From: Flavobacteriaceae bacterium
Lineage (GTDB): Bacteria > Bacteroidota > Bacteroidia > Flavobacteriales > Flavobacteriaceae
Reading direction: 5' to 3'
Assembly (NCBI GenBank): GCA_965224465.1
Contig: OZ245049.1
Span: forward strand, 1,140,001-1,172,000
DNA length: 32,000 bases
The notes below the pieces were generated by a model, which searched no databases, was not told the origin of the DNA, and saw only the letters and a list, made by a program, of their open reading frames with translations. The position numbers were made by a program, and so were the translations under genes. Positions 27 through 23,623 of this stretch are shown one piece after another; within the stretch, counting starts at the first letter, position 1, and every line of letters begins with the position of its first letter.

Positions 27-926
27 TTGGAAACAATACTATCTATCACCAACTTACACAAAAAATATGGTAGCGTCCATGCCGTAAATAATTTATCCTT
101 TACCATAGAGAAAGGAAATGTATATGGGATCTTAGGACCTAATGGAAGTGGGAAATCCACCACTTTAGGAATTATTTTAAACGTAGTCAATAGCAGCTCT
201 GGTAGCTACCAGTGGTTTGACGGATCTATCTCTACACATCAAGCCTTAAAAAAGGTAGGTGCCATTATAGAACGTCCCAATTTTTATCCATACATGACAG
301 CCATACAAAACCTACAACTGGTTTGTAAAATTAAGGACATTCCGTATGATAAAATAGAAGAAAAACTTAAAACTGTTGACTTACACGATCGTAGAAATTC
401 TAAATTCGAAACATTTTCTTTAGGAATGAAACAGCGCTTAGCTATTGCTTCTGCCTTGTTAAACGATCCAGAAATACTAATTCTTGACGAACCGACCAAT
501 GGATTGGACCCCCAAGGAATACACGCCATCAGAAAAATAATTAAAGACATTGCTTCTAAAGGAACAACCATTTTACTAGCTTCTCACCTTCTAGATGAAG
601 TAGAAAAAGTATGTTCCCATGTGGTAATAATCAGAAATGGGATAAAGCTATACGCAGGTCGTGTAGATGAAATGACAACTAGCCATGGTCTTTTTGAACT
701 GAAAACAGACCAAGAAAACCAAACACTTGAAACATTGATAAAGGGCATAAAAGAAATTGCAAGTATCTCTGTAGAAAATGGTTTGATTACTGCACAACTA
801 AATGCGCCACTGGCTGCTTCTGACTTAAATTCTTTCTTGTTCAAAAACGGAATCACACTTTCTCACCTTGTCAAAAGAAAACCAAGTTTAGAACAACAAT
901 TCCTTACTTTAACTACTAAAAAATAA
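27..926 (+). CDS. ABC transporter ATP-binding protein (ABC-2 exporter type)
   Basis: 299-aa ORF with Walker A GPNGSGKST, a signature-like FSLGMKQRL and Walker B ILILDEP. TTG start as in the ORF track. Its stop is 2 nt upstream of the permease start. Confidence 0.9.
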   Translation: METILSITNLHKKYGSVHAVNNLSFTIEKGNVYGILGPNGSGKSTTLGIILNVVNSSSGSYQWFDGSISTHQALKKVGAIIERPNFYPYMTAIQNLQLVCKIKDIPYDKIEEKLKTVDLHDRRNSKFETFSLGMKQRLAIASALLNDPEILILDEPTNGLDPQGIHAIRKIIKDIASKGTTILLASHLLDEVEKVCSHVVIIRNGIKLYAGRVDEMTTSHGLFELKTDQENQTLETLIKGIKEIASISVENGLITAQLNAPLAASDLNSFLFKNGITLSHLVKRKPSLEQQFLTLTTKK

Positions 927-928
927 TC

Positions 929-1759
929 ATGTTACGACTTTTATACATAGAACTTCATAAATTAAGACACAGTAGAGCTAGTAAGGTCTTGATTCTAATT
1001 TATTTTGCATTGCTCACTTCTATTTCGTTGATAGCTGCCATTAAGTTTGACGTTGGTCCCATCCAGTTTCACTTAGCTGATATGGGTATTTTTAACTTTC
1101 CATACATTTGGCATTTTAATACATTTACAGCTTCTATTTTTAAATTTTTCTTATTGCTTGTTATTGTCTCCATGATGGCAAATGAATACAGTAATAAAAC
1201 TCTAAAACAAAATCTAATAGACGGTTTAAGTAAAAAGGAATTTATTCTTTCAAAATTTTACACGGTGATTGCTTTAGCAGCATTATCAACTGTTTTTGTG
1301 TTTTTTGTGACTCTAATTTTAGGCTATAGCTACTCCGACTTTACAGAATTTAGCATTGTACTAATGGATATTCAGTTTTTATTCGCTTTTTTTATAAAAC
1401 TAGTTGGATTCTTTTCTTTTGGACTCTTTTTAGGGATTTTAATCAAACGTTCTGCTTTTGCAGTTGGCGCTTTATTAATATGGCTATTTATTGAAAACGC
1501 TATATTTAAAGGGATTCTTTTTTGGAAACTAAGAGACCATATGGACAGCATTATGAGGTTCTTACCCTTAGAAGCTATGAGCAATCTAATCAAAGAACCT
1601 GGGACACGATTGGATGCCGTAAAATCCTTAGGAAAACAAGTAGGAGAAAACTGGGGAGGAAAAGTTTCGGTACAACCTTTAGACCTATTTATTGTAATGG
1701 TTTGGACCTTTATATTTATTTACTTATCCTATATCTTGGTGAAAAAGAGAGACTTATAA
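929..1759 (+). CDS. ABC-2 family transporter permease
   Basis: 276-aa, very hydrophobic ORF with about 6 predicted TM segments. Tightly coupled to the upstream ATPase gene. No specific substrate can be inferred. Confidence 0.75.
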   Translation: MLRLLYIELHKLRHSRASKVLILIYFALLTSISLIAAIKFDVGPIQFHLADMGIFNFPYIWHFNTFTASIFKFFLLLVIVSMMANEYSNKTLKQNLIDGLSKKEFILSKFYTVIALAALSTVFVFFVTLILGYSYSDFTEFSIVLMDIQFLFAFFIKLVGFFSFGLFLGILIKRSAFAVGALLIWLFIENAIFKGILFWKLRDHMDSIMRFLPLEAMSNLIKEPGTRLDAVKSLGKQVGENWGGKVSVQPLDLFIVMVWTFIFIYLSYILVKKRDL

Positions 1760-9912: not shown

Positions 9913-10413
9913 TCAGTTTACAGCCACCTCGCAAAATTTTATTAAATCAGCCTTAGTCATAGCACCCGCATAACGTTTTACTTCCTTTCCGTTCCTCACT
10001 AGAACAAATTGAGGCAATCCTTTTATATGGTATTTATCTACGATACTTCTATTAAAATCTGCATTCACTTTTAATACTTTCACCTTTTTTGATTCGGCTG
10101 CAAATTTATCGATTATAGAATCCATCATTACACAAGGGCCACACCATTCTGCCCAAAAATCTATCAGTACTAATCCCTCCTTTTCCAACAGGGTCTCTAT
10201 GTTCTCTCCTTCCAATTTCAACATCACCGAATCCTTATTACTCTTCATTATTTTTTTATAAATATATCTAACAGGTAAGGTGAATGCCGCAAAAATAGTG
10301 GATCCCATAAAGAGTATAAAAGCGAGGATATAATGAATAATCGTACCTGTATTTTTACTTTTTTTGAAATTTTCTTCCGCTTGATTTTGATAAGCTATTA
10401 TCTTTTCTATCAT
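9913..10413 (-). CDS. Membrane-anchored thioredoxin-family protein
   Basis: 166 aa. One N-terminal TM helix (IIHYILAFILFMGSTIFAAFTL) followed by a thioredoxin fold with the active site WAEWCGPC. Confidence 0.85.
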   Translation of the reverse strand: MIEKIIAYQNQAEENFKKSKNTGTIIHYILAFILFMGSTIFAAFTLPVRYIYKKIMKSNKDSVMLKLEGENIETLLEKEGLVLIDFWAEWCGPCVMMDSIIDKFAAESKKVKVLKVNADFNRSIVDKYHIKGLPQFVLVRNGKEVKRYAGAMTKADLIKFCEVAVN

Positions 10414-10699: not shown

Positions 10700-11398
10700 C
10701 TACCAACCCCCTATGCGTATTCTTTCTTTTTGCTGCTCAATGGTATCTTCTGGAGAGGGAATAGCACTAGGATACAAAGGTTTTGGAAACCCGTTTTTCT
10801 TTCTGCGCTCATAATCTTGCTGACGATAATCGTCAAAAGCAGTCCCAGGTGGTAAAGGCCTATTTTTATCCATATACCATACATAAAAACTCCACACTTT
10901 ATAGGGTTCACTGCCATAAAAAGTATACAACAAATCTAATTTTCTTGGCTTAAAAGTATTTACAAACTTTAAATACTCAAAATCTGAATAACCTTCAATA
11001 TTACCTGTTACAGCGATTACAACTTTTAAATCTTTAAAATCTCCTTTCAGTGGAGGAAGAAAAAAAACATCTGGATAGGTAACCGTTCCTTCCAAACGAT
11101 TCAATTCAAAAATTTTATATTCTTTTTTTGCAAACAAACCGTAATACACCCCAAATAAGCCAAGTAAAATCAATAGAATGGTTACGACTACTTGTTGAAT
11201 CCCTTCTATTGGTATCATAAGCCATATAGCAATCACAATGGCTCCTATACCGAATTGCATATAAGAATTTAACCTATGATCATGCGTTTCGAAATAGATT
11301 TTATCATCAGCACGTTTTAACATTGCTTTATCTGATTTACTAACCAAACTCTTATCTATTTCTATCGGATCTTCTATAATTTGATGTGGTTGATACAT
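10700..11398 (-). CDS. Two-TM membrane protein, putative immunity paralog (copy 8; cassette type a-x)
   Basis: 232 aa, the last unit of the array. Its 3' flank runs directly into the IS30 remnant. Confidence 0.8.
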   Translation of the reverse strand: MYQPHQIIEDPIEIDKSLVSKSDKAMLKRADDKIYFETHDHRLNSYMQFGIGAIVIAIWLMIPIEGIQQVVVTILLILLGLFGVYYGLFAKKEYKIFELNRLEGTVTYPDVFFLPPLKGDFKDLKVVIAVTGNIEGYSDFEYLKFVNTFKPRKLDLLYTFYGSEPYKVWSFYVWYMDKNRPLPPGTAFDDYRQQDYERRKKNGFPKPLYPSAIPSPEDTIEQQKERIRIGGW

Positions 11399-11534
11399 TT
11401 TATTTCGTTCTATAAGATTCTAACATTTTAATACTATTTTCTGTAACAATTTTTGGCTTCTAAACTACTTGTCTCACACACACTTTAAAAACTGCAACTC
11501 TCCTATAAAAAAAACAACATAACATGCTGTTTCC

Positions 11535-12233
11535 CTACCAACCCCCTATGCGTATTCTTTCTTTTTGCTGCTCAATGGTATCTTCTGGAGAGGGAATAGC
11601 ACTAGGATACAAAGGTTTTGGAAACCCGTTTTTCTTTCTGCGCTCATAATCTTGCTGACGATAATCGTCAAAAGCAGTCCCAGGTGGTAAAGGCCTATTT
11701 TTATCCATATACCATACATAAAAACTCCACACTTTATAGGGTTCACTGCCATAAAAAGTATACAACAAATCTAATTTTCTTGGCTTAAAAGTATTTACAA
11801 ACTTTAAATACTCAAAATCTGAATAACCTTCAATATTACCTGTTACAGCGATTACAACTTTTAAATCTTTAAAATCTCCTTTCAGTGGAGGAAGAAAAAA
11901 AACATCTGGATAGGTAACCGTTCCTTCCAAACGATTCAATTCAAAAATTTTATAGTTCTTTTTTGCAGATAAACCGTAATAAATCCAAAATAATCCACCA
12001 ATTACTAATACTGTTGGTAATATTCTTTGAGATGGTATTTCTGAATAATAAAAAAGCCCTATTCCAAACACAATGGCTCCTATACCGAATTGCATATAAG
12101 AATTTAACCTATGATCATGCGTTTCGAAATAGATTTTATCATCAGCACGTTTTAACATTTCTTTATCTGATTTACTAACCAAACTCTTATCTATTTCTAT
12201 CGGATCTTCTATAATTTGATGTGGTTGATACAT
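11535..12233 (-). CDS. Two-TM membrane protein, putative immunity paralog (copy 7; cassette type a-y)
   Basis: 232 aa. The C-terminal 138 aa are identical to copy 8, but the TM hairpin cassette is the alternative y version. Confidence 0.8.
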   Translation of the reverse strand: MYQPHQIIEDPIEIDKSLVSKSDKEMLKRADDKIYFETHDHRLNSYMQFGIGAIVFGIGLFYYSEIPSQRILPTVLVIGGLFWIYYGLSAKKNYKIFELNRLEGTVTYPDVFFLPPLKGDFKDLKVVIAVTGNIEGYSDFEYLKFVNTFKPRKLDLLYTFYGSEPYKVWSFYVWYMDKNRPLPPGTAFDDYRQQDYERRKKNGFPKPLYPSAIPSPEDTIEQQKERIRIGGW

Positions 12234-12369
12234 TTTATTTCGTTCTATAAGATTCTAACATTTTAATACTATTTTCTGTAACAATTTTTGGCTTCTGCAT
12301 TGCTTCTAACACACACACTTTAAAAACTGCAACTCTCCTATTAAAAAAACAACATAACATGCTGTTTCC

Positions 12370-13068
12370 CTACCAACCCCCTATGCGTATTCTTTCTTTT
12401 TGCTGTTCAAGGGTATCTTCTGGAGTAGGAATAGCACTAGGATACAAAGGTTTTGGAAACCCGTTTTTCTTTCTGCGCTCATAATCTTGCTGACGATAAT
12501 CGTCAAAAGCAGTCCCCGGAGGTAAGGGCCTATTTTTATCCATATACCACACATAAAAACTCCACTCTTTATATGGATCACTGCCATAAAAAGTAAACAA
12601 CAAATCTAATTTTCTTGGCTTAAAAGTATTTACAAACTTTAAATACTCAAAATCTGAATAACCTTCAATACTACCTGTTACTGCGATTACAACTTTTAAA
12701 TCTTTAAAATCTCCTTTCAATGGAGGAAGAAAAAAAACATCTGGATAGGTAACCGTTCCTTCCAAACGATTCAATTCGAAAATTTTATATTCTTTTTTTG
12801 CAAACAAACCGTAATACACCCCAAATAAGCCAAGTAAAATCAATAGAATGGTTACGACTACTTGTTGAATCCCTTCTATTGGTATCATAAGCCATATAGC
12901 AATCACAATGGCTCCTATACCCCAGTAAATATTCGATTTCAAGAAAAAAGCAAAAGATCTAAAATAAATTTCATCATCTGCTCTATTCAAAGATTTTTTA
13001 TCTGATTTACGAACCAAACTCTTATCTATTTCTATCGGATCTTCTATAATTTGATGTGGTTGATACAT
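12370..13068 (-). CDS. Two-TM membrane protein, putative immunity paralog (copy 6; cassette type b-x)
   Basis: 232 aa. The 5' half matches copy 4, while the extreme 3' end (ERIRIGGW) matches copies 7 and 8. The copy is therefore itself a mosaic. Confidence 0.8.
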   Translation of the reverse strand: MYQPHQIIEDPIEIDKSLVRKSDKKSLNRADDEIYFRSFAFFLKSNIYWGIGAIVIAIWLMIPIEGIQQVVVTILLILLGLFGVYYGLFAKKEYKIFELNRLEGTVTYPDVFFLPPLKGDFKDLKVVIAVTGSIEGYSDFEYLKFVNTFKPRKLDLLFTFYGSDPYKEWSFYVWYMDKNRPLPPGTAFDDYRQQDYERRKKNGFPKPLYPSAIPTPEDTLEQQKERIRIGGW

Positions 13069-13205
13069 TTTATTTCGTTCTATAAGATTCTAACATTTTA
13101 ATACTATTTTCTGTAACAATTTTTGGCTTCTAAACTACTTGTCTCACACACACTTTAAAAGCTGCAACTCTCCTATTAAAAAAAACAACATAACATGCTG
13201 TTTCC

Positions 13206-13904
13206 CTACCAACCCCCAATACGTTTTCTTTCTTTTTGCTGTTCAATGGTATCTTCTGGAGTGGGAATAGCACTAGGATACAAAGGTTTTGGAAACCCGT
13301 TTTTCTTTCTGCGATCATAATCTTGCTGACGATAATCGTCAAAAGCAGTCCCCGGAGGTAAGGGCCTATTTTTATCCATATACCATACATAAAAACTCCA
13401 CACTTTATAGGGTTCACTGCCATAAAAAGTATACAACAAACCTAATTTTCTTGGCTTAAAAGTATTTACAAACTTTAAATACTCAAAATCTGAATAACCT
13501 TCAATATTACCTGTTACTGCGATTACAACTTTTAAATCTTTAAAATCTCCTTTCAGTGGAGGAAGAAAAAAAACATCTGGATAGGTAACCGTTCCTTCCA
13601 AACGATTCAATTCGAAAATTTTATATTCTTTTTTTGCAAACAAACCGTAATAAATCCAAAATAATCCACCAATTACTAATACTGTTGGTAATATTCTTTG
13701 AGATGGTATTTCTGAATAATAAAAAAGCCCTATCCCAAACACAATGGCTCCTATACCGAATTGCATATAAGAATTTAACCTATGATCATGCGTTTCGAAA
13801 TAGATTTTATCATCAGCACGTTTTAACATTGCTTTATCTGATTTACGAACCAAACTCTTATCTATTTCTATCGGATCTTCTATAATTTGATGTGGTTGAT
13901 ACAT
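13206..13904 (-). CDS. Two-TM membrane protein, putative immunity paralog (copy 5; cassette type a-y)
   Basis: 232 aa, with the same cassette pair as copies 3 and 7. Shares KLGLLY and DYDRRKK with copy 3. Confidence 0.8.
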   Translation of the reverse strand: MYQPHQIIEDPIEIDKSLVRKSDKAMLKRADDKIYFETHDHRLNSYMQFGIGAIVFGIGLFYYSEIPSQRILPTVLVIGGLFWIYYGLFAKKEYKIFELNRLEGTVTYPDVFFLPPLKGDFKDLKVVIAVTGNIEGYSDFEYLKFVNTFKPRKLGLLYTFYGSEPYKVWSFYVWYMDKNRPLPPGTAFDDYRQQDYDRRKKNGFPKPLYPSAIPTPEDTIEQQKERKRIGGW

Positions 13905-14041
13905 TTTATTTCGTCCTATAAGATGCTAACATTTTAATACTATTTTCTGTAACAATTTTTGGCTTCTAAACTACTTGTATCACACACACTTTAAAAACTG
14001 CAACTCTCCTATTAATAAAAACAACATAACATGCTGTTTCC

Positions 14042-14740
14042 CTACCAACCTCCAATACGTTTTCTTTCTTTTTGCTGCTCAATGGTATCTTCTGGAGTAG
14101 GAATAGCACTAGGATACAAAGGTTTTGGAAACCCGTTTTTCTTTCTGCGCTCATAATCTTGCTGACGATAATCGTCAAAAGCAGTCCCAGGTGGTAAAGG
14201 CCTATTTTTATCCATATACCATACATAAAAACTCCACACTTTATAGGGTTCACTGCCATAAAAAGTATACAACAAATCTAATTTTCTTGGCTTAAAAGTA
14301 TTTACAAACTTTAAATACTCAAAATCTGAATAACCTTCAATATTACCTGTTACTGCGATTACAACTTTTAAATCTTTAAAATCTCCTTTCAATGGAGGAA
14401 GAAAAAAAACATCTGGATAGGTAACCGTTCCTTCCAAACGATTCAATTCGAAAATTTTATATTCTTTTTTTGCAAACAAACCGTAATACACCCCAAATAA
14501 GCCAAGTAAAATCAATAGAATGGTTACGACTACTTGTTGAATCCCTTCTATTGGTATCATAAGCCATATAGCAATCACAATGGCTCCTATACCCCAGTAA
14601 ATATTCGATTTCAAGAAAAAAGCAAAAGATCTAAAATAAATTTCATCATCTGCTCTATTCAAAGATTTTTTATCTGATTTACGAACCAAACTCTTATCTA
14701 TTTCTATCGGATCTTCTATAATTTGATGTGGTTGATACAT
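14042..14740 (-). CDS. Two-TM membrane protein, putative immunity paralog (copy 4; cassette type b-x)
   Basis: 232 aa, with cassettes KSLNRADDEIYFRSFAFFLKSNIYW and IAIWLMIPIEGIQQVVVTILLILLGLFGVYYGL. The N-terminal 100 aa are identical to copy 6. Confidence 0.8.
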   Translation of the reverse strand: MYQPHQIIEDPIEIDKSLVRKSDKKSLNRADDEIYFRSFAFFLKSNIYWGIGAIVIAIWLMIPIEGIQQVVVTILLILLGLFGVYYGLFAKKEYKIFELNRLEGTVTYPDVFFLPPLKGDFKDLKVVIAVTGNIEGYSDFEYLKFVNTFKPRKLDLLYTFYGSEPYKVWSFYVWYMDKNRPLPPGTAFDDYRQQDYERRKKNGFPKPLYPSAIPTPEDTIEQQKERKRIGGW

Positions 14741-14877
14741 TTTATTTCGTTCTATAAGATTCTAACATTTTAATACTATTTTCTGTAACAATTTTTGGCT
14801 TCTAAACTACTTGTCTCACACACACTTTAAAAGCTGCAACTCTCCTATTAAAAAAAACAACATAACATGCTGTTTCC

Positions 14878-15576
14878 CTACCAACCCCCAATACGTTTTC
14901 TTTCTTTTTGCTGTTCAATGGTATCTTCTGGAGTGGGAATAGCACTAGGATACAAAGGTTTTGGAAACCCGTTTTTCTTTCTGCGATCATAATCTTGCTG
15001 ACGATAATCGTCAAAAGCAGTCCCCGGAGGTAAGGGCCTATTTTTATCCATATACCATACATAAAAACTCCACACTTTATAGGGTTCACTGCCATAAAAA
15101 GTATACAACAAACCTAATTTTATTGGCTTAAAAGTATTTACAAACTTTAAATACTCAAAATCTGAATAACCTTCAATATTACCTGTTACTGCGATTACAA
15201 CTTTTAAATCTTTAAAATCTCCTTTCAGTGGAGGAAGAAAAAAAACATCTGGATAGGTAACCGTTCCTTCCAAACGATTCAATTCAAAAATTTTATATTC
15301 CTTTTTTGCAGATAAACCGTAATAAATCCAAAATAATCCACCAATTACTAATACTGTTGGTAATATTCTTTGAGATGGTATTTCTGAATAATAAAAAAGC
15401 CCTATCCCAAACACAATGGCTCCTATACCGAATTGCATATAAGAATTTAACCTATGATCATGCGTTTCGAAATAGATTTTATCATCAGCACGTTTTAACA
15501 TTGCTTTATCTGATTTACTAACCAAACTCTTATCTATTTCTATCGGATCTTCTATAATTTGATGTGGTTGATACAT
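14878..15576 (-). CDS. Two-TM membrane protein, putative immunity paralog (copy 3; cassette type a-y)
   Basis: 232 aa, with cassettes AMLKRADDKIYFETHDHRLNSYMQF and FGIGLFYYSEIPSQRILPTVLVIGGLFWIYYGL. Shares the KLGLLY and DYDRRKK substitutions with copy 5. Confidence 0.8.
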   Translation of the reverse strand: MYQPHQIIEDPIEIDKSLVSKSDKAMLKRADDKIYFETHDHRLNSYMQFGIGAIVFGIGLFYYSEIPSQRILPTVLVIGGLFWIYYGLSAKKEYKIFELNRLEGTVTYPDVFFLPPLKGDFKDLKVVIAVTGNIEGYSDFEYLKFVNTFKPIKLGLLYTFYGSEPYKVWSFYVWYMDKNRPLPPGTAFDDYRQQDYDRRKKNGFPKPLYPSAIPTPEDTIEQQKERKRIGGW

Positions 15577-15713
15577 TTTATTTCGTTCTATAAGATTCTA
15601 ACATTTTAATACTATTTTCTGTAACAATTTTTGGTTTCTAAACTACTTGTATCACACACACTTTAAAAACTGCAACTCTCCTATTAATAAAAACAACATA
15701 ACATGCTGTTTCC

Positions 15714-16412
15714 CTACCAACCTCCAATACGTTTTCTTTCTTTTTGCTGCTCAATGGTATCTTCTGGAGTAGGAATAGCACTAGGATACAAAGGTTTTGG
15801 AAACCCGTTTTTCTTTCTGCGCTCATAATCTTGCTGACGATAATCGTCAAAAGCAGTCCCAGGTGGTAAAGGCCTATTTTTATCCATATACCATACATAA
15901 AAACTCCACACTTTATAGGGTTCACTGCCATAAAAAGTATACAACAAATCTAATTTTCTTGGCTTAAAAGTATTTACAAACTTTAAATACTCAAAATCTG
16001 AATAACCTTCAATATTACCTGTTACAGCGATTACAACTTTTAAATCTTTAAAATCTCCTTTCAATGGAGGAAGAAAAAAAACATCTGGATAGGTAACCGT
16101 TCCTTCCAAACGATTCAATTCAAAAATTTTATATTCTTTTTTTGCAAACAAACCGTAATACACCCCAAATAAGCCAAGTAAAATCAATAGAATGGTTACG
16201 ACTGCTTGTTGAATCTCTTCTATTGATACCATAAGCCATATAGCAAACACAATGGCTCCTATGCCGAATTTCATATAAGTATTCAGCCTATGACCATGCG
16301 TTTCAAAATAGATTTTATCATCAGCACGTTTTAACATTCCTTTATCTGATTTACTAACCAAACTCTTATCTATTTCTATCGGATCTTCTATAATTTGATG
16401 TGGTTGATACAT
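15714..16412 (-). CDS. Two-TM membrane protein, putative immunity paralog (copy 2; cassette type a-x, slightly diverged)
   Basis: 232 aa. Cassette 1 is GMLKRADDKIYFETHGHRLNTYMKF and cassette 2 is FAIWLMVSIEEIQQAVVTILLILLGLFGVYYGL. The C-terminal domain differs from copy 8 at 2 positions. Confidence 0.8.
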   Translation of the reverse strand: MYQPHQIIEDPIEIDKSLVSKSDKGMLKRADDKIYFETHGHRLNTYMKFGIGAIVFAIWLMVSIEEIQQAVVTILLILLGLFGVYYGLFAKKEYKIFELNRLEGTVTYPDVFFLPPLKGDFKDLKVVIAVTGNIEGYSDFEYLKFVNTFKPRKLDLLYTFYGSEPYKVWSFYVWYMDKNRPLPPGTAFDDYRQQDYERRKKNGFPKPLYPSAIPTPEDTIEQQKERKRIGGW

Positions 16413-16548
16413 TTTATTTCGTTCTATAAGATGCTAACATTTTAATACTATTTTCTGTAACAATTTTTGGCTTCTGCATTGCTTCTAACACACACACTTT
16501 AAAAACTGCAACTCTCCTATAAAAAAAACAACATAACATGCTGTTTCC

Positions 16549-17247
16549 CTACCAACCCCCTATGCGTTTTCTTTCTTTTTGCTGTTCAATGGTATCTTCT
16601 GGAGTAGGAATAGCACTAGGATACAAAGGTTTTGGAAACCCGTTTTTCTTTCTGCGCTCATAATCTTGCTGACGATAATCGTCAAAAGCAGTCCCAGGTG
16701 GTAAGGGCCTATTTTTATCCATATACCATACATAAAAACTCCACTCTTTATAGGGCTCACTGCCATAAAAAGTATACAACAAACCTAATTTTCTTGGCTT
16801 AAAAGTATTTACAAATTTTAAATACTCCCTATCTGAATAACCTTCAATACTACCTGTAACAGCGATTACAACTTTTAAATCTTTAAAATCTCCTTTCAAT
16901 GGAGGAAGAAAAAAAACATCTGGATAGGTAACCGTTCCTTCCAAACGATTCAATTCAAAAATCTTATAGTTCTTTTTTGCAAATAAACCGTAATAAATCC
17001 AAAACAATCCACCAATTACTAATACTGTTGGTAATATTCTTTGAGATGGTATTTCTGAATAATAAAAAAGCCCTATCCCAAACACAATGGCTCCTATGCC
17101 CCAATAAATATTCGATTTCAAGAAAAAAGCAAAAGATCTAAAATAAATTTCATCATCTGCTCTATTCAAAGATTCTTTATCTGATTTACGAACCAAACTC
17201 TTATCTATTTCTATCGGATCTTCTATAATTTGATGTGGTTGATACAT
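16549..17247 (-). CDS. Two-TM membrane protein, putative cognate immunity protein (array copy 1 of 8; cassette type b-y)
   Basis: 232 aa. The ATG lies 1 nt after the stop of the 1116-aa ORF (TAAaATG). No signal peptide. Two adjacent TM helices at about residues 50-88 and a conserved C-terminal domain of about 140 aa. Cassette 1 is SLNRADDEIYFRSFAFFLKSNIYW and cassette 2 is FGIGLFYYSEIPSQRILPTVLVIGGLFWIYYGL. Confidence 0.8.
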   Translation of the reverse strand: MYQPHQIIEDPIEIDKSLVRKSDKESLNRADDEIYFRSFAFFLKSNIYWGIGAIVFGIGLFYYSEIPSQRILPTVLVIGGLFWIYYGLFAKKNYKIFELNRLEGTVTYPDVFFLPPLKGDFKDLKVVIAVTGSIEGYSDREYLKFVNTFKPRKLGLLYTFYGSEPYKEWSFYVWYMDKNRPLPPGTAFDDYRQQDYERRKKNGFPKPLYPSAIPTPEDTIEQQKERKRIGGW

Positions 17248-17248
17248 T

Positions 17249-20200
17249 TTATTTCGTTCTATAAGATGCTAACATTTTAATACTGTTTTCTGTAACAATT
17301 TTTGGCTTCTGCATTGCTTCTTCTTCTGACATATTTTGTAATTTAACCTTACGTACATTTATAGGCTGTTGATATCGATGTGCTGTAAATATACTCGTCA
17401 TATATCTTGTATTATTGTTCACTTTATTATGTAATTGTGCGTTGGTAAATACGTAGCGTTTGTTATGATTAAAATCAGAAGGAGTATACTCATCATCTTG
17501 TACACGAACTCTAAAGGTAAACAATACTTCGCCATCAGGATAATCCATATACCTCCAATAAAACAGATCAGGTAAACCGAAACTAACAATACAATTAGGA
17601 GTCATTTTATCCGCATCAAAAAGGAAGCTCTTTTCAGGAAAACTAGATATAAATGTAGTGATTTCGAAACGTCTTCCTTTTTTTAATGGAGCTTTAATAC
17701 CAAAGGGATAAAACCATGCTTTAATATCTAAATCATAAAATTCACTAATATTTTGAACAGAATATATAGAGGCTCTAAAACGATTGGTACTTACATTATG
17801 TATGTCAAATCCTTTTATAGGCGCAACATAACCAGCATTAGGTTCTGGTTCAAGAACAACTAAACTAGGAATGGCTATGTCTAAGAAAGCTGTATATGCT
17901 TTTTCAAAATTACTAAAACTCGTATATTCTTTAGCTTGTGCGCTTACAAACCATGGATTGATAACTGTTGCGGTACTGTGAGACACCAAGCGATTGATAT
18001 AATCATGTGGTAATTCCGTATCTTTAGGAGGCAATGCATAATCACTTAATGGAAAATTCTTAAAATAGCCTTCGAGTTGGGTGTCAACAAAATATTTTTG
18101 AGCCAAATAGTAACAGCCTAACAAAGCCCCTCCAAGAAGTGCTGCTGGCCAAAAACCAAGAGCAAATACTGCTACGCCTCCACCAATTAAAGCAGTAACA
18201 TCTGCAAATAAGAAAACAGCGCCTATTCCCGCAGCCATTCCGAACAAGGCTGCAGCATCGTTATCGCGCACAGAAAAACTCCGATAGCTATCTCTAGAGG
18301 CAGTAAAAACGGTAATGGCAGAACTTACTATTTTAAGTTTTGCTATATTTTTAGAAAAATCATCCATGCTACTACGAAAAATTTCACCTACAAATCCTTT
18401 TTTTGCTAGATGATTCTCATACAAATTCATTTTTTCAATTAAAGACATACTTGCCGCTCCCAATTGAACACTAGCAAACCCGAATTTTTCAAACCCTCTA
18501 TAAGAAGGGTCTTTTAAAAAACTATTAACAGCTTTAGACAACACAAACACCTCAATTAAAACAACAAGTCCTCCGAAAGCGTTTGATTTTAGAACTTTTT
18601 CTGCTTCTCCTTTAAAACGTTTTGGAAGGTTTCCTTTTAAATTTACTTCAAGTTTTTTGTTTTTGATAAGTGCTTCAGCACTTTGTTTAGTCATTTTTGT
18701 ATACTCAAGGTGCCAGTATTTTTTATATTTATGTAATGTCGCTTTTTCCCCATTAATTTCAAAACGCAAATTGCGGTTATTGATTTTAGTTTCAAATTCT
18801 TCTAGTGCTTTAAATTTAAAGGTAGCTACACGTGTGTTTTTATCTCTAAAATAAGATATTTTACTTTTTACAGGTATGGGAAGTTTTTTTTGCTTTAGCT
18901 TAATAAAAGCACCTATATAGCTATCATGATTTGCATAAGCCTTTATGATTCTTTCAATAACTCCTACTGTTTTATTTATTATACTCAAAACAAACATATC
19001 CTGTATGTCGATCTTATAATCTAATATTTTGGTGGATTTATTAAAAACACTTGGATTTTCGTTGTATAAAGTTTCGTTTATATGGATGTACCAGGGATCC
19101 TTTTTAGGCTCATAGACATTTGTTAAATCTAAATGACGGTCATACATATTAGGATAACTGCCTAAAGCAATGAAATGTACTGCTATAACACCTTTGGCAT
19201 CTTCAATCCTATCGGGAATACTATTCATATAATCATCCGTTGCATCTTGATAATAGTCGGACTTCAAAAAAGTTCCCAAATCATCTCTATACGTATTAAT
19301 TACCTTGCGTTGCACCTTGCGTTCTTCTACGCCTAATATTTTTTCTAGTTTTATTTTTTCGACACCTTTTTGTTCGGTAAATGGTCGAAATACGCCCCCT
19401 ACTGTAAAATCTAAAACACGGTTGGCAACGGTGTTTTTTATTACATCTGAATTGTATTTTTCACTATTATCATGGTTGTTGTACACAAAATCATACGTAA
19501 GTTGCGCCAATCTATGTAAATATTGAATTTGTCTGGATTTTTCAGTATCGGATTTTGGTAATTGCTCCCCTTTTTGAAGCATAGAAAGTATCTCCACGGT
19601 AGACTTCCCTGTTTGTAAACTTGCCATCATCGCTTTAAGTCTCAAAATTTCACTGTCAATACCTACACATATTTCATTGGCACAGCCAATAGGGTCATCC
19701 AGTATAATAAACATATCTTCTAACAAGATATTCCCACCTAGCTTATCTTGTCTCTTTTCGTCGTCAGCAATTCTCGTAAGTATCTCACGGTATTTATACG
19801 CCATAGGATTCCTATCACTTACAACTATAGGTGTATTATTATAATGCGAAACTGACATATTATTTGTTTCTCCATCTTTAGGGATTCCTTTACAGAGTAC
19901 TTTTACCTTACAACGTTGACCCCTTTTTTCTTTGCTATCTAAAAGCTCTTTTACATAATTTGCCTTCCATTGTACAGGAGAAAAAGCAAAGCAATAGGTT
20001 TGGTTATTCCGATCAAGTATTTTATACATAATACCAAGATCGAAAGTGGTCCGAACATCTAAATAGCTACCGTCTTTTTTGTTTTTACTCCAAAGTATTT
20101 CATGTAACAATCCAAAATCATCGACCCTAAATTCCTTAAAATCATCATGAGGTGTTTGATCATTTATCATATAAACATAGCCTGCTCTTAAAGGAGTTTT

Positions 20201-20599
20201 CGATACCGAAAAATTTTCATTAGCTGGAATTTCTGAATCCATAATCACAGCATTCAGTTGTACAAAAGGTATAAAATCCTGATTTTTTAGTTCAGACTCA
20301 GAAGGTTTTTCGTTGATAACCTTCCCAACAGTTGCTTTTTTTTCTTCATTAAAAAAAATAGCTTTAAAATATGCGGCACTATCAGGTGATGAATAACTAG
20401 TTGTTGGCACAGAATAATCAGAACAAACATCAAAAAGTCCATACCGTAAAAAATGAAGTTTTATCCCTCTTTTTTCTATATCCAATGTAGGCATTTCGTT
20501 GCATACAACATTTTTATATGCAGCTGTAAATGAGAGCTGTGTAATTATTTGTTTGAATTCTTTTTCTTGATTTTTTTCAAGTGTTATATTTTCTTTCAT
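17249..20599 (-). CDS. Large protein without a signal peptide, with a C-proximal glycine-zipper TM cluster. Putative membrane-disrupting polymorphic toxin or T6SS-type effector (VasX-N-like motifs).
   Basis: 1116 aa with no N-terminal signal peptide. Residues ~105-320 carry IPFVQLN, PLRAGYVYMI, FAFSPVQW and FIILDDPIGCANEI, which I recall as the motif order of VasX-type effector N-terminal regions. Residues ~673-835 hold several hydrophobic helices, including AALFGMAAGIGAVFLFADVTALIGGGVAVFALGFWPAALLGGALLGCYYLA. The gene is translationally coupled to the downstream two-TM gene. Function is inferred, not demonstrated. Confidence 0.6.
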   Translation of the reverse strand: MKENITLEKNQEKEFKQIITQLSFTAAYKNVVCNEMPTLDIEKRGIKLHFLRYGLFDVCSDYSVPTTSYSSPDSAAYFKAIFFNEEKKATVGKVINEKPSESELKNQDFIPFVQLNAVIMDSEIPANENFSVSKTPLRAGYVYMINDQTPHDDFKEFRVDDFGLLHEILWSKNKKDGSYLDVRTTFDLGIMYKILDRNNQTYCFAFSPVQWKANYVKELLDSKEKRGQRCKVKVLCKGIPKDGETNNMSVSHYNNTPIVVSDRNPMAYKYREILTRIADDEKRQDKLGGNILLEDMFIILDDPIGCANEICVGIDSEILRLKAMMASLQTGKSTVEILSMLQKGEQLPKSDTEKSRQIQYLHRLAQLTYDFVYNNHDNSEKYNSDVIKNTVANRVLDFTVGGVFRPFTEQKGVEKIKLEKILGVEERKVQRKVINTYRDDLGTFLKSDYYQDATDDYMNSIPDRIEDAKGVIAVHFIALGSYPNMYDRHLDLTNVYEPKKDPWYIHINETLYNENPSVFNKSTKILDYKIDIQDMFVLSIINKTVGVIERIIKAYANHDSYIGAFIKLKQKKLPIPVKSKISYFRDKNTRVATFKFKALEEFETKINNRNLRFEINGEKATLHKYKKYWHLEYTKMTKQSAEALIKNKKLEVNLKGNLPKRFKGEAEKVLKSNAFGGLVVLIEVFVLSKAVNSFLKDPSYRGFEKFGFASVQLGAASMSLIEKMNLYENHLAKKGFVGEIFRSSMDDFSKNIAKLKIVSSAITVFTASRDSYRSFSVRDNDAAALFGMAAGIGAVFLFADVTALIGGGVAVFALGFWPAALLGGALLGCYYLAQKYFVDTQLEGYFKNFPLSDYALPPKDTELPHDYINRLVSHSTATVINPWFVSAQAKEYTSFSNFEKAYTAFLDIAIPSLVVLEPEPNAGYVAPIKGFDIHNVSTNRFRASIYSVQNISEFYDLDIKAWFYPFGIKAPLKKGRRFEITTFISSFPEKSFLFDADKMTPNCIVSFGLPDLFYWRYMDYPDGEVLFTFRVRVQDDEYTPSDFNHNKRYVFTNAQLHNKVNNNTRYMTSIFTAHRYQQPINVRKVKLQNMSEEEAMQKPKIVTENSIKMLASYRTK

Positions 20600-20930
20600 G
20601 GCGTCTTTTTCAAAAATATCAGAGGTAGATACCCCACATTTTTAACGTAAAAAACAATGGTACATCCTATTTTTATCTTCCTAGATATAAGTCTATTTCC
20701 AAGAGAAAAGAACAATTACTATTCCCTTTAGACTTCAAAGATACGTAAGAAAAGTTATATGCCGCTTACAACAAATCGTTTTTTTAATAAATTGTGAAAT
20801 AACATTTATTATAGCATCATACCTCCAATCAATAACCGTTAAATTGACTGGGTATTATCTTAATAATTTTATGACGCCTTTATGCCAATTAAAATCCAAA
20901 ATGACCTATATAAATAGGTTGTTTTACGTG

Positions 20931-21050
20931 CTAGCATAGTTAAAAAACAAAACGACAGCTAACTATCCTTAGATTTTCAGCCTAGCTAGAATAAAAAACA
21001 ATTCTATTTCTAAACCGTCACTTGGAAATGTTTTTGACATTAGCAATACT
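20931..21050. repeat. Right copy (R2) of the imperfect direct repeat of about 120 bp bracketing the island
   Basis: Same orientation and shared blocks as 9773..9893. Lies between the lon terminator and the upstream region of the large ORF. Confidence 0.6.
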
Positions 21051-21064
21051 TTTAAAATCAGCTC

Positions 21065-21113
21065 AAAAAAAAAACAAAAAAAGAGCGAAAAAACACATCA
21101 TGTCTTTCCGCTC
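21065..21113 (-). terminator. Probable intrinsic terminator of lon
   Basis: On the minus strand, a bulged stem gagcg-g-aaa ... ttt-cgctc is followed by a long T-run (tttttttgtttttttttt), about 35 nt after the lon stop. Confidence 0.5.
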
Positions 21114-21145
21114 CTTTATGGCTTTTTGCTTAAAGCTATTTCCTA

Positions 21146-23623
21146 TTACACCTCAAATTTAATAGGATTTTTTACTTTTTGTTTGGTCAAAGCTAAATCA
21201 ATTACTTCTTTCATATCAGAAACATAGCTGAATTTCAATCCTTTTAGGTAACTAGCTTTAATTTCTTCAACATCTTTTTTGTTCTCAATAGACAAAATCA
21301 ATTCTTTAATATTGGCTCTTTTTGCAGCTAATATTTTTTCTTTGACTCCTCCTACTGGCAATACTTTACCTCTTAATGTAATTTCACCAGTCATAGCCAT
21401 TTTTGATTTCACTTTTCGCTGAGTTAACACAGAAACCAACGATGTTAACATAGTAATACCAGCACTAGGCCCATCTTTTGGAGTCGCACCTTCTGGCACG
21501 TGAATATGAACTTTATAGGCATCTAATACTTTCTGGTCAACACCAAAATCTGCTGCATGTGCCTTGATGTATTCCATGGCAATAGTTGCTGATTCCTTCA
21601 TCACCTTTCCTAGATTCCCTGTAATGGTCAAGCCTTTTCCTTTAGAGATGATAGACTCTATAAATAAAATATCTCCACCTACACTTGTCCATGCCAAACC
21701 TGTTACAACACCCGCTACATCATTGTTTTCGTATTTGTCACGTTCTAAATGAGACGGTCCTAATACTTTCTCGATAATTTCTATCGTTATATTGGTTTCA
21801 TATTCTTCATCCAAAGCAATCGACTTGGCTGCAAAACGAACCATCTTGGCCAATTGTTTTTCCAATCCACGCACTCCAGATTCACGAGTATAAGCTACTA
21901 CAATTTTCTCGATGGATTTTATATCCATTTGAATATACTTCTTGGTTAAACCATGGTCTTTAATTTGTTTTGGCAATAAATGACGTTTGGCTATTTCAAT
22001 TTTTTCTTCTATCGTATAGCCCGACACATTGATAATCTCCATACGATCTCTCAATGCCCAAGGAATTGTAGATAAACTATTGGCAGTAGCAATAAATAAG
22101 ACTTTAGATAAATCGTAGTCCAACTCTAAATAATTATCGTAAAAAGAGGCGTTTTGTTCTGGATCCAATACTTCTAACATTGCAGATGAAGGATCTCCAT
22201 TATGACTTGAAGATGCCAATTTATCTATCTCATCCAATACATATACAGGATTAGAAGTTCCTACTTTTTTCAAGTCCTTAATAATACGACCTGGCATAGC
22301 ACCAATATATGTTTTCCTATGACCACGAATTTCAGCTTCGTCGCGTAATCCTCCAAGAGACATACGTACATATTTACGACCAATAGCTTCTGCAATAGAT
22401 TTACCCAAACTTGTCTTCCCAACCCCTGGAGGTCCGTACAAACACAAAATTGGTGATTTCATATCTCCTTTCAGTTTTAAAACCGCCAAGTGTTCGATGA
22501 TACGTTCCTTGACCTTGTCCAAACCAAAATGATCTCTATCTAGTATTTTCTGAGCTCTTTTCAAGTCAAAAACATCCTTCGTGTACTCATTCCATGGCAA
22601 TTCCAACAACAAATCTAAATAATTTCGTTGCACCGAATATTCTGCCATTTGTGGATTCATACGTTGCAAACGACCGAGTTCCTTTTCAAAGGTTTCTTTT
22701 ACATCCTTATTCCATTTTTTAGCCTTGGCTTTTACACGCATTTCGTCCAATTCTTCATCATACGAAACACCTCCCAATTCTTCCTGAATGGTTTTTAACT
22801 GCTGATGTAAATAATACTCACGTTGCTGTTGGTCCATATCCACTCTTGTTTTGGATTGGATATCATTTTTTAACTGCAGGCGTTGTAATTCAGCATCCAT
22901 TTTTTGTAAGGTCACCAAAGCACGTTCTTTCAAATTGTTAATTTCTAACAATTCTTGTTTTTCCTTCACAGGTAAATTCATGTTTGCTGACACAAAATTA
23001 ATCAAGAAAGGTTTGCTTTCTATATTGCGTATCGCAAAAGTAGCTTCTGATGGTAGGTTCGGATTTTCTTTAACAATACGTGTCGCCAATTCTTTAATAG
23101 AATCAATAATCGCATCAAACTCTTTTTCATTTTCCTCAGACCTGTCTTCAATAATCTCTTTGGTTGTGGCCTTCATAAAAGGTTCGTCTTGAATCATACT
23201 TTCAATTTCAAAACGTTTTTTACCTTGAATGATAACCGTAGTATTTCCATCAGGCATTTTCAATACCTTCAAAATACTTGCAACAGTCCCCGTTTTATAA
23301 ATATCATTTTCAGTAGGATCCTCTATTTCTTCATCCATTTGGGCTACCACACCTATAATTTTATTTCCTTTGCTGGCTTGTTTAATCAACTCAATGGATT
23401 TATCACGCCCAGCAGTAATTGGAATTACAACCCCTGGAAAAAGTACAGTATTTCGCAAAGGCAAAATAGGTAAAGTGTCAGGAACATCCTCTTTATTTAT
23501 CTCCTCTTCGTCCTCGGGAGTCATTAAAGGAATTAATTCTGCGTCTTCATCCATCATACTATGCAATGACAGATTGTCAAACTTTAAAAACTTAGATCTA
23601 CTCATATATATATTTTCAGTCAC
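21146..23623 (-). CDS. lon: ATP-dependent Lon protease (LonA)
   Basis: 825 aa. Lon N-terminal domain ([19 protein letters not shown]), AAA+ Walker [10 protein letters not shown], Walker [10 protein letters not shown] and a protease domain with catalytic Ser in PKDGPSAGI. The exact start among N-terminal Met codons is uncertain. Confidence 0.97.

Follow-up and report, generated by a model that had tools for sequence, protein, structure and literature searches.

[quoted passage not shown] What kind of toxin is this protein, how would it be exported from a locus with no apparatus genes in view, and how would its producer be protected? The analysis indicated that it is very probably an antibacterial effector of the VasX family, belonging to the Bacteroidota-type T6SS (T6SSiii), with activity and secretion deduced from sequence and a predicted structure. 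The features of the locus are listed in Table 1.

Table 1. Features of the effector locus, in window coordinates
Feature	Residues (aa)	Position (nt)	Strand	Description and basis
Effector gene	1-1116	17249..20599	(-)	1116 aa, stop codon included; VasX-family T6SS toxin (ORF check, Pfam, NCBIfam, Foldseek)
MIX-type N-terminal domain	1-262	19814..20599	(-)	Pfam match, AF2, motif conservation, Ptx2 profile match
Variable insert holding IPFVQLN	61-122	20234..20419	(-)	pLDDT <50; 23% identity among close relatives
Alpha-helical scaffold	263-665	18605..19813	(-)	AF2 helices 265-580 at good confidence
TMD (membrane-insertion) region	666-840	18080..18604	(-)	Kyte-Doolittle, BTH_I2691_fam match, AF2
Post-TMD helical segment	841-909	17873..18079	(-)	AF2 secondary structure, Ptx2 domain description
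C-terminal beta-rich domain	910-1116	17252..17872	(-)	AF2, Foldseek
Putative immunity genes, eight tandem	232 each	10700..17247	(-)	Period 835-836 nt (ORFs, junction, homologues, AF2)
Non-coding upstream region		20600..21117	(-)	lon terminator-like hairpin 21079..21117, then ~480 nt

The effector belongs to the VasX family

The ORF was confirmed. Pfam VasX_N (PF20249) matched aa 134-229 (nt 19913..20200) with 34.1 bits against a gathering cut-off of 27 (E 3.5e-8), and 23 of 24 homologues carry the same precomputed annotation. The NCBIfam model BTH_I2691_fam (NF041559) matched aa 658-843, corresponding to model positions 652-826 of 858 (E 1e-8). The score, 34.1 bits, was far under the curated whole-protein cut-off of 150 bits, indicating that the likeness to this proteobacterial subfamily is local only. 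On these profile scores the effector is homologous to BTH_I2691 proteins in the TM region, yet outside their subfamily. The same model matched the hydrophobic cluster in all 19 family members (best E 3.1e-28). Among the scanned genome contigs, the best match of the effector was 58% identical.

A single-sequence search against PDB sequences returned nothing meaningful; only the family profile reached Ptx2 (9qpv, E 2.6e-6) and Tke5 (9r8g, E 0.016), and the Ptx2 match fell in the MIX-type N-terminal domain. The effector was modeled with AF2 (pLDDT 62.8, pTM 0.58). Foldseek comparison of the model with the PDB gave a sole significant match, the toxin Tke5 (9r8g, E 8e-10, prob 1.00), over 1185 aligned columns spanning the full length. 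The TM-score was only 0.28/0.32, with aa 584-840 at low confidence in the model. Because Pfam VasX_N, NCBIfam BTH_I2691 and Foldseek to Tke5 agreed as three independent tests, sequence and predicted structure directly support the effector as a flavobacterial member of the described VasX / BTH_I2691 / Tke5 / Ptx2 / Bte2 family of pore-forming T6SS effectors. The annotated VasX resemblance was therefore borne out by the above-threshold Pfam hit, by the BTH_I2691, Ptx2 and Tke5 profile matches and by fold.

A colicin-type pore former was also considered and rejected, as the Pfam scan of the effector gave no colicin family at E <= 0.1 and the listed PDB matches, whether by sequence or by fold, included no colicin.

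Domain organization of the effector

AF2 predicted a MIX domain, a helical region, TM helices and a beta-rich C-terminal domain, and this order matches that published for Tke5, Ptx2 and Bte2. The N-terminal domain was modeled as beta-rich, with pLDDT 75-90 at aa 125-260. The first-pass annotation had picked out four motifs, IPFVQLN (aa 110-116), PLRAGYVYMI (aa 136-145), FAFSPVQW (aa 204-211) and FIILDDPIGCANEI (aa 297-310), and a hydrophobic cluster; recomputation returned exactly the same coordinates. The MIX motif, as quoted in PMC12909789, has a central element hRxGhhYhh, a C-terminal element hhF/YSxxxWS/T and a less conserved N-terminal element shhPhR. In the effector, LRAGYVYMI (aa 137-145) fits the central element and FAFSPVQWK (aa 204-212) the C-terminal one, for which the family consensus is AYSPVQWS. 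Both were kept in 19/19 relatives, and no convincing instance of shhPhR was found in the effector. By sequence, the annotated motif series is the published MIX motif, a point that the annotation had missed. PLRAGYVYMI, FAFSPVQW and FIILDDPIGCANEI were conserved across all 19 aligned relatives. IPFVQLN was not conserved and does not qualify as a family motif; it sits in a poorly conserved, low-confidence insert that is probably disordered according to the model.

The N-terminus carried no hydrophobic segment; along the protein, Kyte-Doolittle values first exceeded 1.3 in the window starting at aa 296. The effector therefore has no signal peptide or lipobox, as had been annotated.

The scaffold was the best-conserved region (56% identity among close relatives), with a conserved block EDMFITLxDPxGCAD (aa 294-308) at its start. 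Hydrophobic segments of the TMD region were located at aa 668-696 and 780-833 (maximum KD 2.06); the hydrophobic helices themselves span about aa 673-696 and 782-833, with amphipathic helices between them. AF2 modeled this region as long helices at low confidence; in published work on Ptx2, Tke5 and Bte2, the TMD region adopts two conformations. The 53-residue core contained 11 of the 31 small-xxx-small motifs of the whole protein, compared with ~1.5 expected by length alone. Its annotation as rich in GxxxG/A packing motifs was correct in this count, but only two of the 11 were strict GxxxG, and the enrichment mostly reflects Gly/Ala-rich composition, as in the TM segments of Tke5.

The final ~280 residues, annotated as one unassigned domain, were divided in the model into a helical segment and a beta-rich domain of ~205 residues. 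By analogy with Ptx2 residues 963-999, the helical segment probably returns to the scaffold. The beta-rich domain was predicted to contain ~14 strands, most 10-residue blocks having pLDDT 66-90 with a few dips to 40-49. In the model, it occupies the place that the Ig-like domain has in Tke5, Ptx2 and Bte2; besides the full-length Tke5 alignment, Foldseek gave weak Ig/TCR matches. It was the most divergent region of the protein: close relatives share 39% identity here and distant ones 14.5%. When this domain was queried by itself against 1.84 billion representatives, only 10 matches came back. Its sequence relatives were C-termini of VasX-like proteins of ~1000-1100 aa, or short proteins (85-300 aa), probably fragments, and so there was no sign of a mobile module.

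Gene context and probable PAAR partners

Gene linkage was examined in 48 related loci. A PAAR gene lay directly upstream of the effector in 33 of them and a DUF4280 gene in about five, while VgrG was present in 22/48 and Bacteroidota-type Hcp (TssD) in 14/48. The linked Hcp belongs to the T6SSiii TssD family PF17642, and the linked VgrG carries Phage_GPD and Phage_base_V domains. A gene of the 2-TM immunity family followed the effector in 45/48 loci, in one to eight copies.

In our locus, tblastn with PAAR, VgrG and Hcp of the relatives gave no match anywhere in the 32-kb window, and no T6SS remnants were found there. The effector is thus an orphan, as the first-pass annotation had supposed. 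This status is less remarkable than was implied, because five Tenacibaculum loci have an identical orphan layout and the same 5,241,564-bp contig has genes for three PAAR proteins (P0059, P0099 and P0104) of the partner subfamily. The contig also encodes a second effector paralogue, P0010, truncated inside its last TM helix, and an extra immunity homologue, P0203.

The ~480 nt upstream of the effector held no ORF or PAAR remnant, and the effector's own promoter is presumed to lie in the non-coding region. Scanning for sigma-70 promoters, whose consensus is not appropriate for Bacteroidota, gave fewer sites than shuffled sequence did. The Bacteroidota -7 motif TAnnTTTG was found 56 times against 50.6 expected; as it was not enriched, no promoter is claimed. 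GC content was 30-35% across the locus, with no base-composition island signature.

An eight-copy mosaic array of putative immunity genes

Directly downstream of the effector are eight putative immunity genes, which the first-pass annotation had missed. The ATG of the first one lies 1 nt past the effector stop codon; by this junction, it is translationally coupled to the effector. Each protein was predicted to have a 2-TM hairpin and a conserved globular part. The family comprises 726 members. The protein matched no Pfam or NCBIfam family, and its AF2 model (pLDDT 79) had no significant structural match in the PDB.

The organization of the array could be read directly. Outside one 230-nt stretch, the copies were 96-100% identical in DNA. 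This stretch consists of two cassettes with two alleles each (63-68% identical in DNA), and all four combinations were present. The variable cassettes cover the pre-TM segment and the TM1-loop-TM2 hairpin. Every spacer of the array retains the last ~48-75 nt of the effector gene. From their sequences, the eight copies are best read as a cognate immunity gene together with a reserve of variants that would protect against related toxins of competing strains.

The positive-inside rule places the conserved globular part in the cytoplasm, away from where a periplasmic toxin would first be encountered, which makes the immunity mechanism the weakest step of our reading. A tentative proposal, which we regard as possible but rather doubtful when its parts are taken jointly, is that the immunity system works in an undescribed way. 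The array may have arisen by recent amplification and cassette shuffling, as a library built on an otherwise near-identical gene and acting within the membrane. The almost invariant C-terminal tail of the immunity family may be cytoplasmic and have a role other than toxin binding. In the Bacteroidota, the MIX-domain receptor may be a PAAR protein with a conserved C-terminal extension in place of the Tap adaptor. If this were true, a single cell would be protected within its membrane, through the cassette library, against several variants of VasX toxin.

Proposed mechanism and alternative explanations

We propose that the toxin is synthesised in the cytoplasm and is at first soluble and closed, its hydrophobic helices packed within the helical scaffold. 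The N-terminal MIX domain would dock on the T6SS spike, where the partner in this lineage is most likely a PAAR protein of 230-255 aa with a conserved C-terminal extension, which in this genome would come from another locus. Once injected into the periplasm of an adjacent Gram-negative cell, the toxin would insert its Gly/Ala-rich helices (aa ~673-833) into the inner membrane and form an ion-conducting pore, and the membrane potential would collapse. Toxicity would not reside in the divergent C-terminal beta domain, whose role is probably to tune recognition of the target or membrane. Self and kin would be protected by the downstream 2-TM proteins, most likely by intercepting the toxin helices inside the membrane.

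The effector could instead be a decaying relic, an orphan no longer loaded into a T6SS and kept only through linkage to an immunity array that is useful in defence against the toxins of other strains. The lack of PAAR, VgrG and Hcp in the window and the truncation of P0010 agree with this, and the eightfold amplification of the immunity gene would fit selection on defence, not attack. However, the ORF is full length relative to its relatives and keeps both MIX motifs as well as all 38 invariant family residues (the latter by construction of alignment A1), and its translation is coupled to that of the first immunity gene. Three partner-type PAAR genes are present in the genome, and conservation of the orphan layout across five Tenacibaculum species argues for function. 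We consider a relic unlikely.

Two readings would change the target or the exporter. VasX of V. cholerae was first described against Dictyostelium and intoxicates amoebae, so that grazers or a host might be the main target here also; but an amplified immunity family beside the gene marks a toxin that hits kin bacteria too, and the characterised relatives are all antibacterial, which makes a mainly eukaryotic target very unlikely. As for the exporter, the AF2-predicted C-terminus is beta-sandwich-like, as T9SS sorting domains are, and PAAR-like and VgrG-like proteins occur in extracellular contractile injection systems (eCIS) too. A T9SS cargo needs a signal peptide, and searches found no T9SS C-terminal-domain family in NCBIfam (E <= 1) or Pfam (E <= 0.1); with neither a signal peptide nor a type A or type B sorting domain in the effector, we rejected the T9SS cargo. 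The T6SSiii type of the Hcp linked in relatives, the domains of the linked VgrG and the MIX domain, a T6SS marker, also speak against T9SS or eCIS export, which we regard as extremely improbable. The reading as a VasX-family T6SSiii effector was retained.

Significance

The effector itself is an ordinary protein, one more case of a known toxin family. Two cryo-EM structures and a phylum-wide catalogue are already available for that family, and this effector adds one marine flavobacterial member to it. The more unusual feature of the locus is the eight-copy mosaic immunity array, not the toxin. With variation confined to the TM hairpin, the array is a natural experiment on how membrane-embedded immunity recognises pore-forming toxins, and it bears on the recognition question left by the Tke5/Tki5 and Ptx2/Pti2 studies. 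The locus also illustrates cleanly how a T6SSiii effector can be an orphan that would have to be loaded in trans, in a lineage that probably pairs the MIX domain with a PAAR protein instead of a Tap adaptor.

Comparison with known systems

VasX, Tke5, Ptx2 and Bte2 all act from the periplasm and depolarise the inner membrane. With Tke5 of Pseudomonas putida and Ptx2 of P. aeruginosa, the effector shares N-terminal similarity by sequence, the MIX domain, a large helical region with buried Gly-rich TM helices, a C-terminal beta domain and a downstream gene for a membrane-protein immunity factor. For Tke5, the helical region is toxic alone and the beta region is not, and its immunity protein Tki5, located in the membrane, binds the TM region. 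Identity to Tke5 was ~11% in the structural alignment. The effector differs in a probably disordered 62-residue insert in its N-terminal region, in a beta domain of ~205 aa compared with 133 in Tke5, and in an immunity protein unrelated in sequence to those of Tke5 and Ptx2. A Tap/DUF4123 gene lies between vgrG and the effector gene in P. putida and upstream of most Ptx2 homologues, whereas the gene directly upstream in our effector's lineage, by which this was judged, is PAAR or DUF4280 (~38/48 loci).

Close relatives from Tenacibaculum, Aquimarina and Cellulophaga, carrying the NCBI name "toxin VasX", have been catalogued as VasX-like before. Ratner et al. (PNAS 2025, PMC12718326) included Aquimarina algicola, Aquimarina sp. 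and Cellulophaga baltica among Foldseek-derived 'VasX-like' orthologues, and further species in their genome table are Tenacibaculum gallaicum, T. maritimum, T. jejuense, Olleya aquimaris, Spongiivirga citrea and Pseudozobellia thermophila; the score is 'rnf No, immunity Yes' throughout. Several of the species named have proteins with 25-56% identity to our effector, whose source genome is absent from the list. Bte2 of Bacteroides fragilis comes from the same phylum and the same T6SSiii context but requires the Rnf complex of its target. As the marine Flavobacteriaceae in that table lack rnf, our effector is, by analogy, presumably Rnf-independent.

VasX/TsiV2 of Vibrio cholerae shares the Pfam VasX_N region, C-terminal TM helices and an adjacent immunity gene. 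While vasX has hcp-2, vgrG-2, the accessory gene vasW and tsiV2 as neighbours in a satellite T6SS cluster, our locus has a single orphan effector and eight immunity paralogues. In orphan immunity arrays, such as those of Bacteroidales acquired interbacterial defence and Vibrio T6SS auxiliary clusters, paralogues lie by an effector locus and are presumed to protect against non-self toxin variants. Acquired interbacterial defence systems are mentioned in the abstract of PMC10470768. The array described here differs from them in its near-identical copies, its two-cassette mosaic and the effector-tail remnants in its spacers.

Family assignment of the effector

The ORF call gave the 1116-residue effector ORF of the first-pass annotation, whose nucleotide ranges for the motif region, the hydrophobic cluster and its core were arithmetically exact. 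The VasX-like character of its N-terminus was borne out by the Pfam model VasX_N (PF20249), which matched residues 134-229 (E 3.5e-8) with 34.1 bits against a gathering score of 27. The NCBIfam model BTH_I2691_fam, a T6SS effector family that includes Tke5 of P. putida, matched residues 658-843 at model positions 652-826 of 858 (E 1.1e-8), with a score of 34 bits that is far under the model's cut-off of 150 bits. All 19 aligned relatives matched this model, with a best E of 3.1e-28. A search of 5.8 billion proteins recovered 24 relatives of the effector, and PF20249 was found on almost all of them. Relatives from Aquimarina muelleri, Tenacibaculum maritimum, T. jejuense, Cellulophaga baltica and Spongiivirga citrea carry the NCBI name "toxin VasX". 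Two homologues, P0013 (40% identity), labelled as Alteromonas sp. KUL156, a gammaproteobacterium, and P0003 (57% identity), from a eukaryote transcriptome assembly, likely reflect contamination or associated flavobacteria and not true hosts. The effector sequence alone found no match in the PDB. The profile of the 19-sequence alignment matched Ptx2 of P. aeruginosa (9qpv, E 2.6e-6) and Tke5 (9r8g, E 0.016), both via the N-terminal region.

The MIX ("marker for type six") motif has a central element, hRxGhhYhh, flanked by shhPhR and hhF/YSxxxWS/T (Salomon et al. 2014, as quoted in PMC12909789). The four motifs that had been read as a VasX-N-like series sit at residues 110-116, 136-145, 204-211 and 297-310. 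LRAGYVYMI matched the central MIX element and FAFSPVQWK the C-terminal one, for which the family consensus is AYSPVQWS; both were kept in 19/19 relatives. These two are elements of the published MIX motif, and this part of the series stood. IPFVQLN was ruled out as a family motif, being located in a poorly conserved 62-residue insert (aa 61-122, pLDDT <50, 23% identity). The fourth motif falls in a conserved block, EDMFITLxDPxGCAD, with which the helical region opens; the Pfam model does not cover this block.

Kyte-Doolittle analysis found no hydrophobic segment before residue 296, indicating that the effector has neither a signal peptide nor a lipobox, as had been noted. Windows above 1.3 were found at residues 668-696 and 780-833, and 11 of the effector's 31 small-xxx-small motifs fell in the 53-residue core, in agreement with the proposed hydrophobic cluster and its core rich in packing motifs.

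Predicted structure and domain layout

An AlphaFold2 model of the effector was built on the 19-sequence alignment (mean pLDDT 62.8, pTM 0.58). Its sole significant Foldseek match in the PDB was the pore-forming effector Tke5 (9r8g_A, E 8e-10, probability 1.00, 1185 columns). All other PDB matches, including weak Ig/TCR ones of 125-160 columns, were at E >= 0.01. The TM-score against 9r8g_A was 0.28/0.32. Papers on Ptx2, Tke5 and B. fragilis Bte2 describe that predictors put TM helices either buried or extruded, so a low TM-score and a weak middle of the model were expected.

Four parts make up the published layout: a MIX domain, a helical scaffold (alpha-region), a TM region rich in Gly and a C-terminal Ig-like domain. 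As modelled, the effector maps one-to-one onto this architecture of Tke5 and Ptx2. The final ~280 residues, previously taken as one unrecognised domain, are thus the tail of the helical region (841-909) followed by the family's beta domain (910-1116).

The beta domain was the most divergent part of the effector: close relatives share 39% identity here and 56% in the scaffold. Searched alone, it found only 10 relatives among 1.84 billion representatives, all of them C-termini of ~1000-1100-residue proteins or short 85-300-aa proteins resembling fragments. Killing by Tke5 needs only the helical region; its beta region is dispensable and not toxic.

Features of the window, the effector, the known effectors and the loci of relatives (nt positions of the window unless marked aa or given with a locus)
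Feature	Position	Strand	Remarks
Effector ORF	17249..20599	-	1116 residues
Immunity array	10700..17247	-	eight 232-residue ORFs, period 835-836 nt
Immunity spacers (examples)	16413..16548; 15577..15713		136-137 nt
97-aa ORF, four copies	13130..13423; 13966..14259; 14802..15095; 15638..15931	-	different frame
lon	21146..23623		window neighbour
Thioredoxin	9913..10413		window neighbour
949-aa protein	1971..4820	+	N-terminal signal-like sequence
Effector, N-terminal beta-rich domain	aa 125-260		joined by strands from residues 18-57; pLDDT 75-90; AlphaFold2
Effector, helical region	aa 265-580		good confidence; AlphaFold2
Effector, long helices	aa 584-840		low confidence; AlphaFold2
Effector, short helices	aa 841-909		AlphaFold2
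Effector, C-terminal beta-rich domain	aa 910-1116		~14 strands; most 10-residue blocks at pLDDT 66-90, few dips to 40-49; AlphaFold2
Tke5	aa 17-238; 239-863; 608-813; 864-996		MIX; helical; TM (inside helical region); C-terminal beta
Ptx2	aa 36-258; 259-816 and 963-999; 817-962; after 999		MIX; helical; TM; C-terminal beta
PAAR subfamily (examples)	L001:9109-9816; L016:9268-9984; L018:9278-9991		30 other loci
Other cargo in relatives	L026:6822-8288; L030:7208-8281; L021:4373-7615; L028:7586-9199		same T6SS islands
Flavivirga aquatica effector gene	L046:10001-12037		first of a tandem pair

Genomic context and T6SS linkage

No T6SS genes were found in the window, where tblastn with the PAAR, VgrG, Hcp and DUF4280 proteins of relatives gave a best E of 0.015. 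Besides lon and thioredoxin, the window contains sbcCD, uvrB and an ECF sigma factor with its anti-sigma partner. The C-terminus of the 949-aa protein contains FFTPNNDGINDTWKL, a stretch that looks like the type B sorting domain of T9SS cargo in gliding Bacteroidota.

A scan of one genome per species gave 45 effector loci, mostly from marine Flavobacteriaceae (Tenacibaculum, Aquimarina, Spongiivirga, Olleya, Flavivirga, Pseudozobellia, Ulvibacter and Hyunsoonleella), with one locus each from a Marinilabiliaceae bacterium and Fulvivirga. With two T. maritimum loci and the window added, ORFs of 48 loci were called and clustered, and family names of neighbour genes were assigned by Pfam. A 2-TM protein family, the predicted immunity family of the array, lies 3' of the effector in 45 of the 48 loci (135 members). 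On the 5' side, the effector has a ~238-aa PAAR protein as neighbour in 33 loci and a PAAR-like DUF4280 protein in about five; farther upstream are VgrG in 22 loci and Bacteroidota-type Hcp (TssD, PF17642) in 14. The orphan layout of the window is common to five Tenacibaculum loci.

The PAAR proteins directly 5' of the effector in the 33 loci form a subfamily of 223-255 aa with a conserved C-terminal extension of ~140 residues, for which there is no Pfam model. This subfamily could take the place of the Tap adaptor as partner of the MIX domain. A profile of it found three members (P0059, P0099 and P0104) on the window's own 5,241,564-bp contig, judged by a sole contig that agrees in length and sources with that of the window's proteins. 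The effector had been suggested to be an orphan far from any apparatus genes; this holds for the window, and the matching spike parts in the same genome make it an orphan only locally. They are indirect evidence pointing to a T6SS in this genome. The contig also encodes an additional immunity homologue (P0203) and, outside the window, a second VasX-like gene, P0010, 56% identical to the effector. P0010 stops near residue 820, within its last TM helix, and lacks the post-TM helices and the beta domain; it is possibly a pseudogene.

The relatives' T6SS islands also contained other cargo: a Tle1-like phospholipase beside a DUF2931 protein, a 1080-aa PAAR-HetC fusion and a 537-aa PAAR protein with an uncharacterised C-terminal domain. 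Flavivirga aquatica carries a second effector gene downstream of the first, making a tandem VasX-like pair with its own immunity genes after each.

A mosaic array of predicted immunity genes

The first immunity ATG lies one base past the TAA of the effector. Neither Pfam nor NCBIfam has a model for the immunity family, of which 726 members were detectable. An almost invariant C-terminal tail marks the family (WYMDKNRPLPPG.AFD.YR..D.ERRK..GFP.PLY...TPE.T..Q..R...GGW); this Pro-rich stretch of ~60 residues is nearly unchanged even between members with 37% overall identity (immunity-family alignment; window 16549..17247, minus strand). The AlphaFold2 model (pLDDT 79.3, pTM 0.73) had two N-terminal strands, a TM hairpin (41-63 and 67-89), a beta-sheet (96-160) and three helices, and gave no significant match in the PDB. 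Across 30 members, Lys+Arg counts were 2.0 (N-flank), 0.8 (loop) and 4.0 (C-flank). Under the positive-inside rule, these counts predict a cytoplasmic location for both termini, the conserved tail included, and for the conserved globular part, so that only an acidic 8-12-residue loop would be exposed to the periplasm.

The array genes were 100% identical at nt 1-54 and 96-100% identical at nt 286-699. Between these stretches lie two cassettes with two classes each: nt 55-150, the pre-TM segment (~63% identical), and nt 151-285, covering the second half of TM1, the loop and TM2 (63-68% identical). All four combinations of the two cassettes occur. The hairpin-confined variation agrees with Tki5, the immunity protein of Tke5, which is itself a membrane protein and binds the toxin's TM region; it suggests that the toxin may be neutralised within the membrane.

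Each spacer ends in a copy of the last ~48-75 nt of the effector (...EAMQKPKIVTENSIKMLASYRTK*). A 48-nt probe of this tail had seven matches in the window and at most one in each of the 47 other loci, indicating that the array is the product of recent tandem duplication, the duplicated unit being one that straddles the effector-immunity junction. The four 97-aa ORFs overlap immunity 3' ends and spacers and are probably a by-product of the repeat, not genes.

Comparison with known systems

VasX, Tke5, Ptx2 and Bte2 act after delivery to the periplasm, where the small ion-selective pores that they form depolarise the inner membrane. For Ptx2 and Bte2, toxicity depends on NaCl or KCl rather than sucrose. 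The VasX-type interpretation of the window's effector was supported. Ratner et al. (PNAS 2025, PMC12718326) showed B. fragilis Bte2 to be a divergent VasX member. Their table of genomes with VasX-like toxins includes Tenacibaculum gallaicum, T. maritimum, T. jejuense, T. mesophilum, Aquimarina sp., Cellulophaga baltica, Olleya aquimaris, Spongiivirga citrea and Pseudozobellia thermophila, all nine scored "rnf No, immunity Yes". The effector is 25-56% identical to proteins from several of the listed species; the family and its architecture, as well as its occurrence in marine Flavobacteriaceae, have therefore already been described. What merits a further look is the mosaic eight-copy array and the predicted inward-facing immunity domain, rather than the effector itself. 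Compared with the proteobacterial archetypes, the upstream slot holds PAAR/DUF4280 by Pfam assignment, apparently in place of a Tap/DUF4123 adaptor, the beta domain is bigger, and the immunity family is unrelated to theirs.
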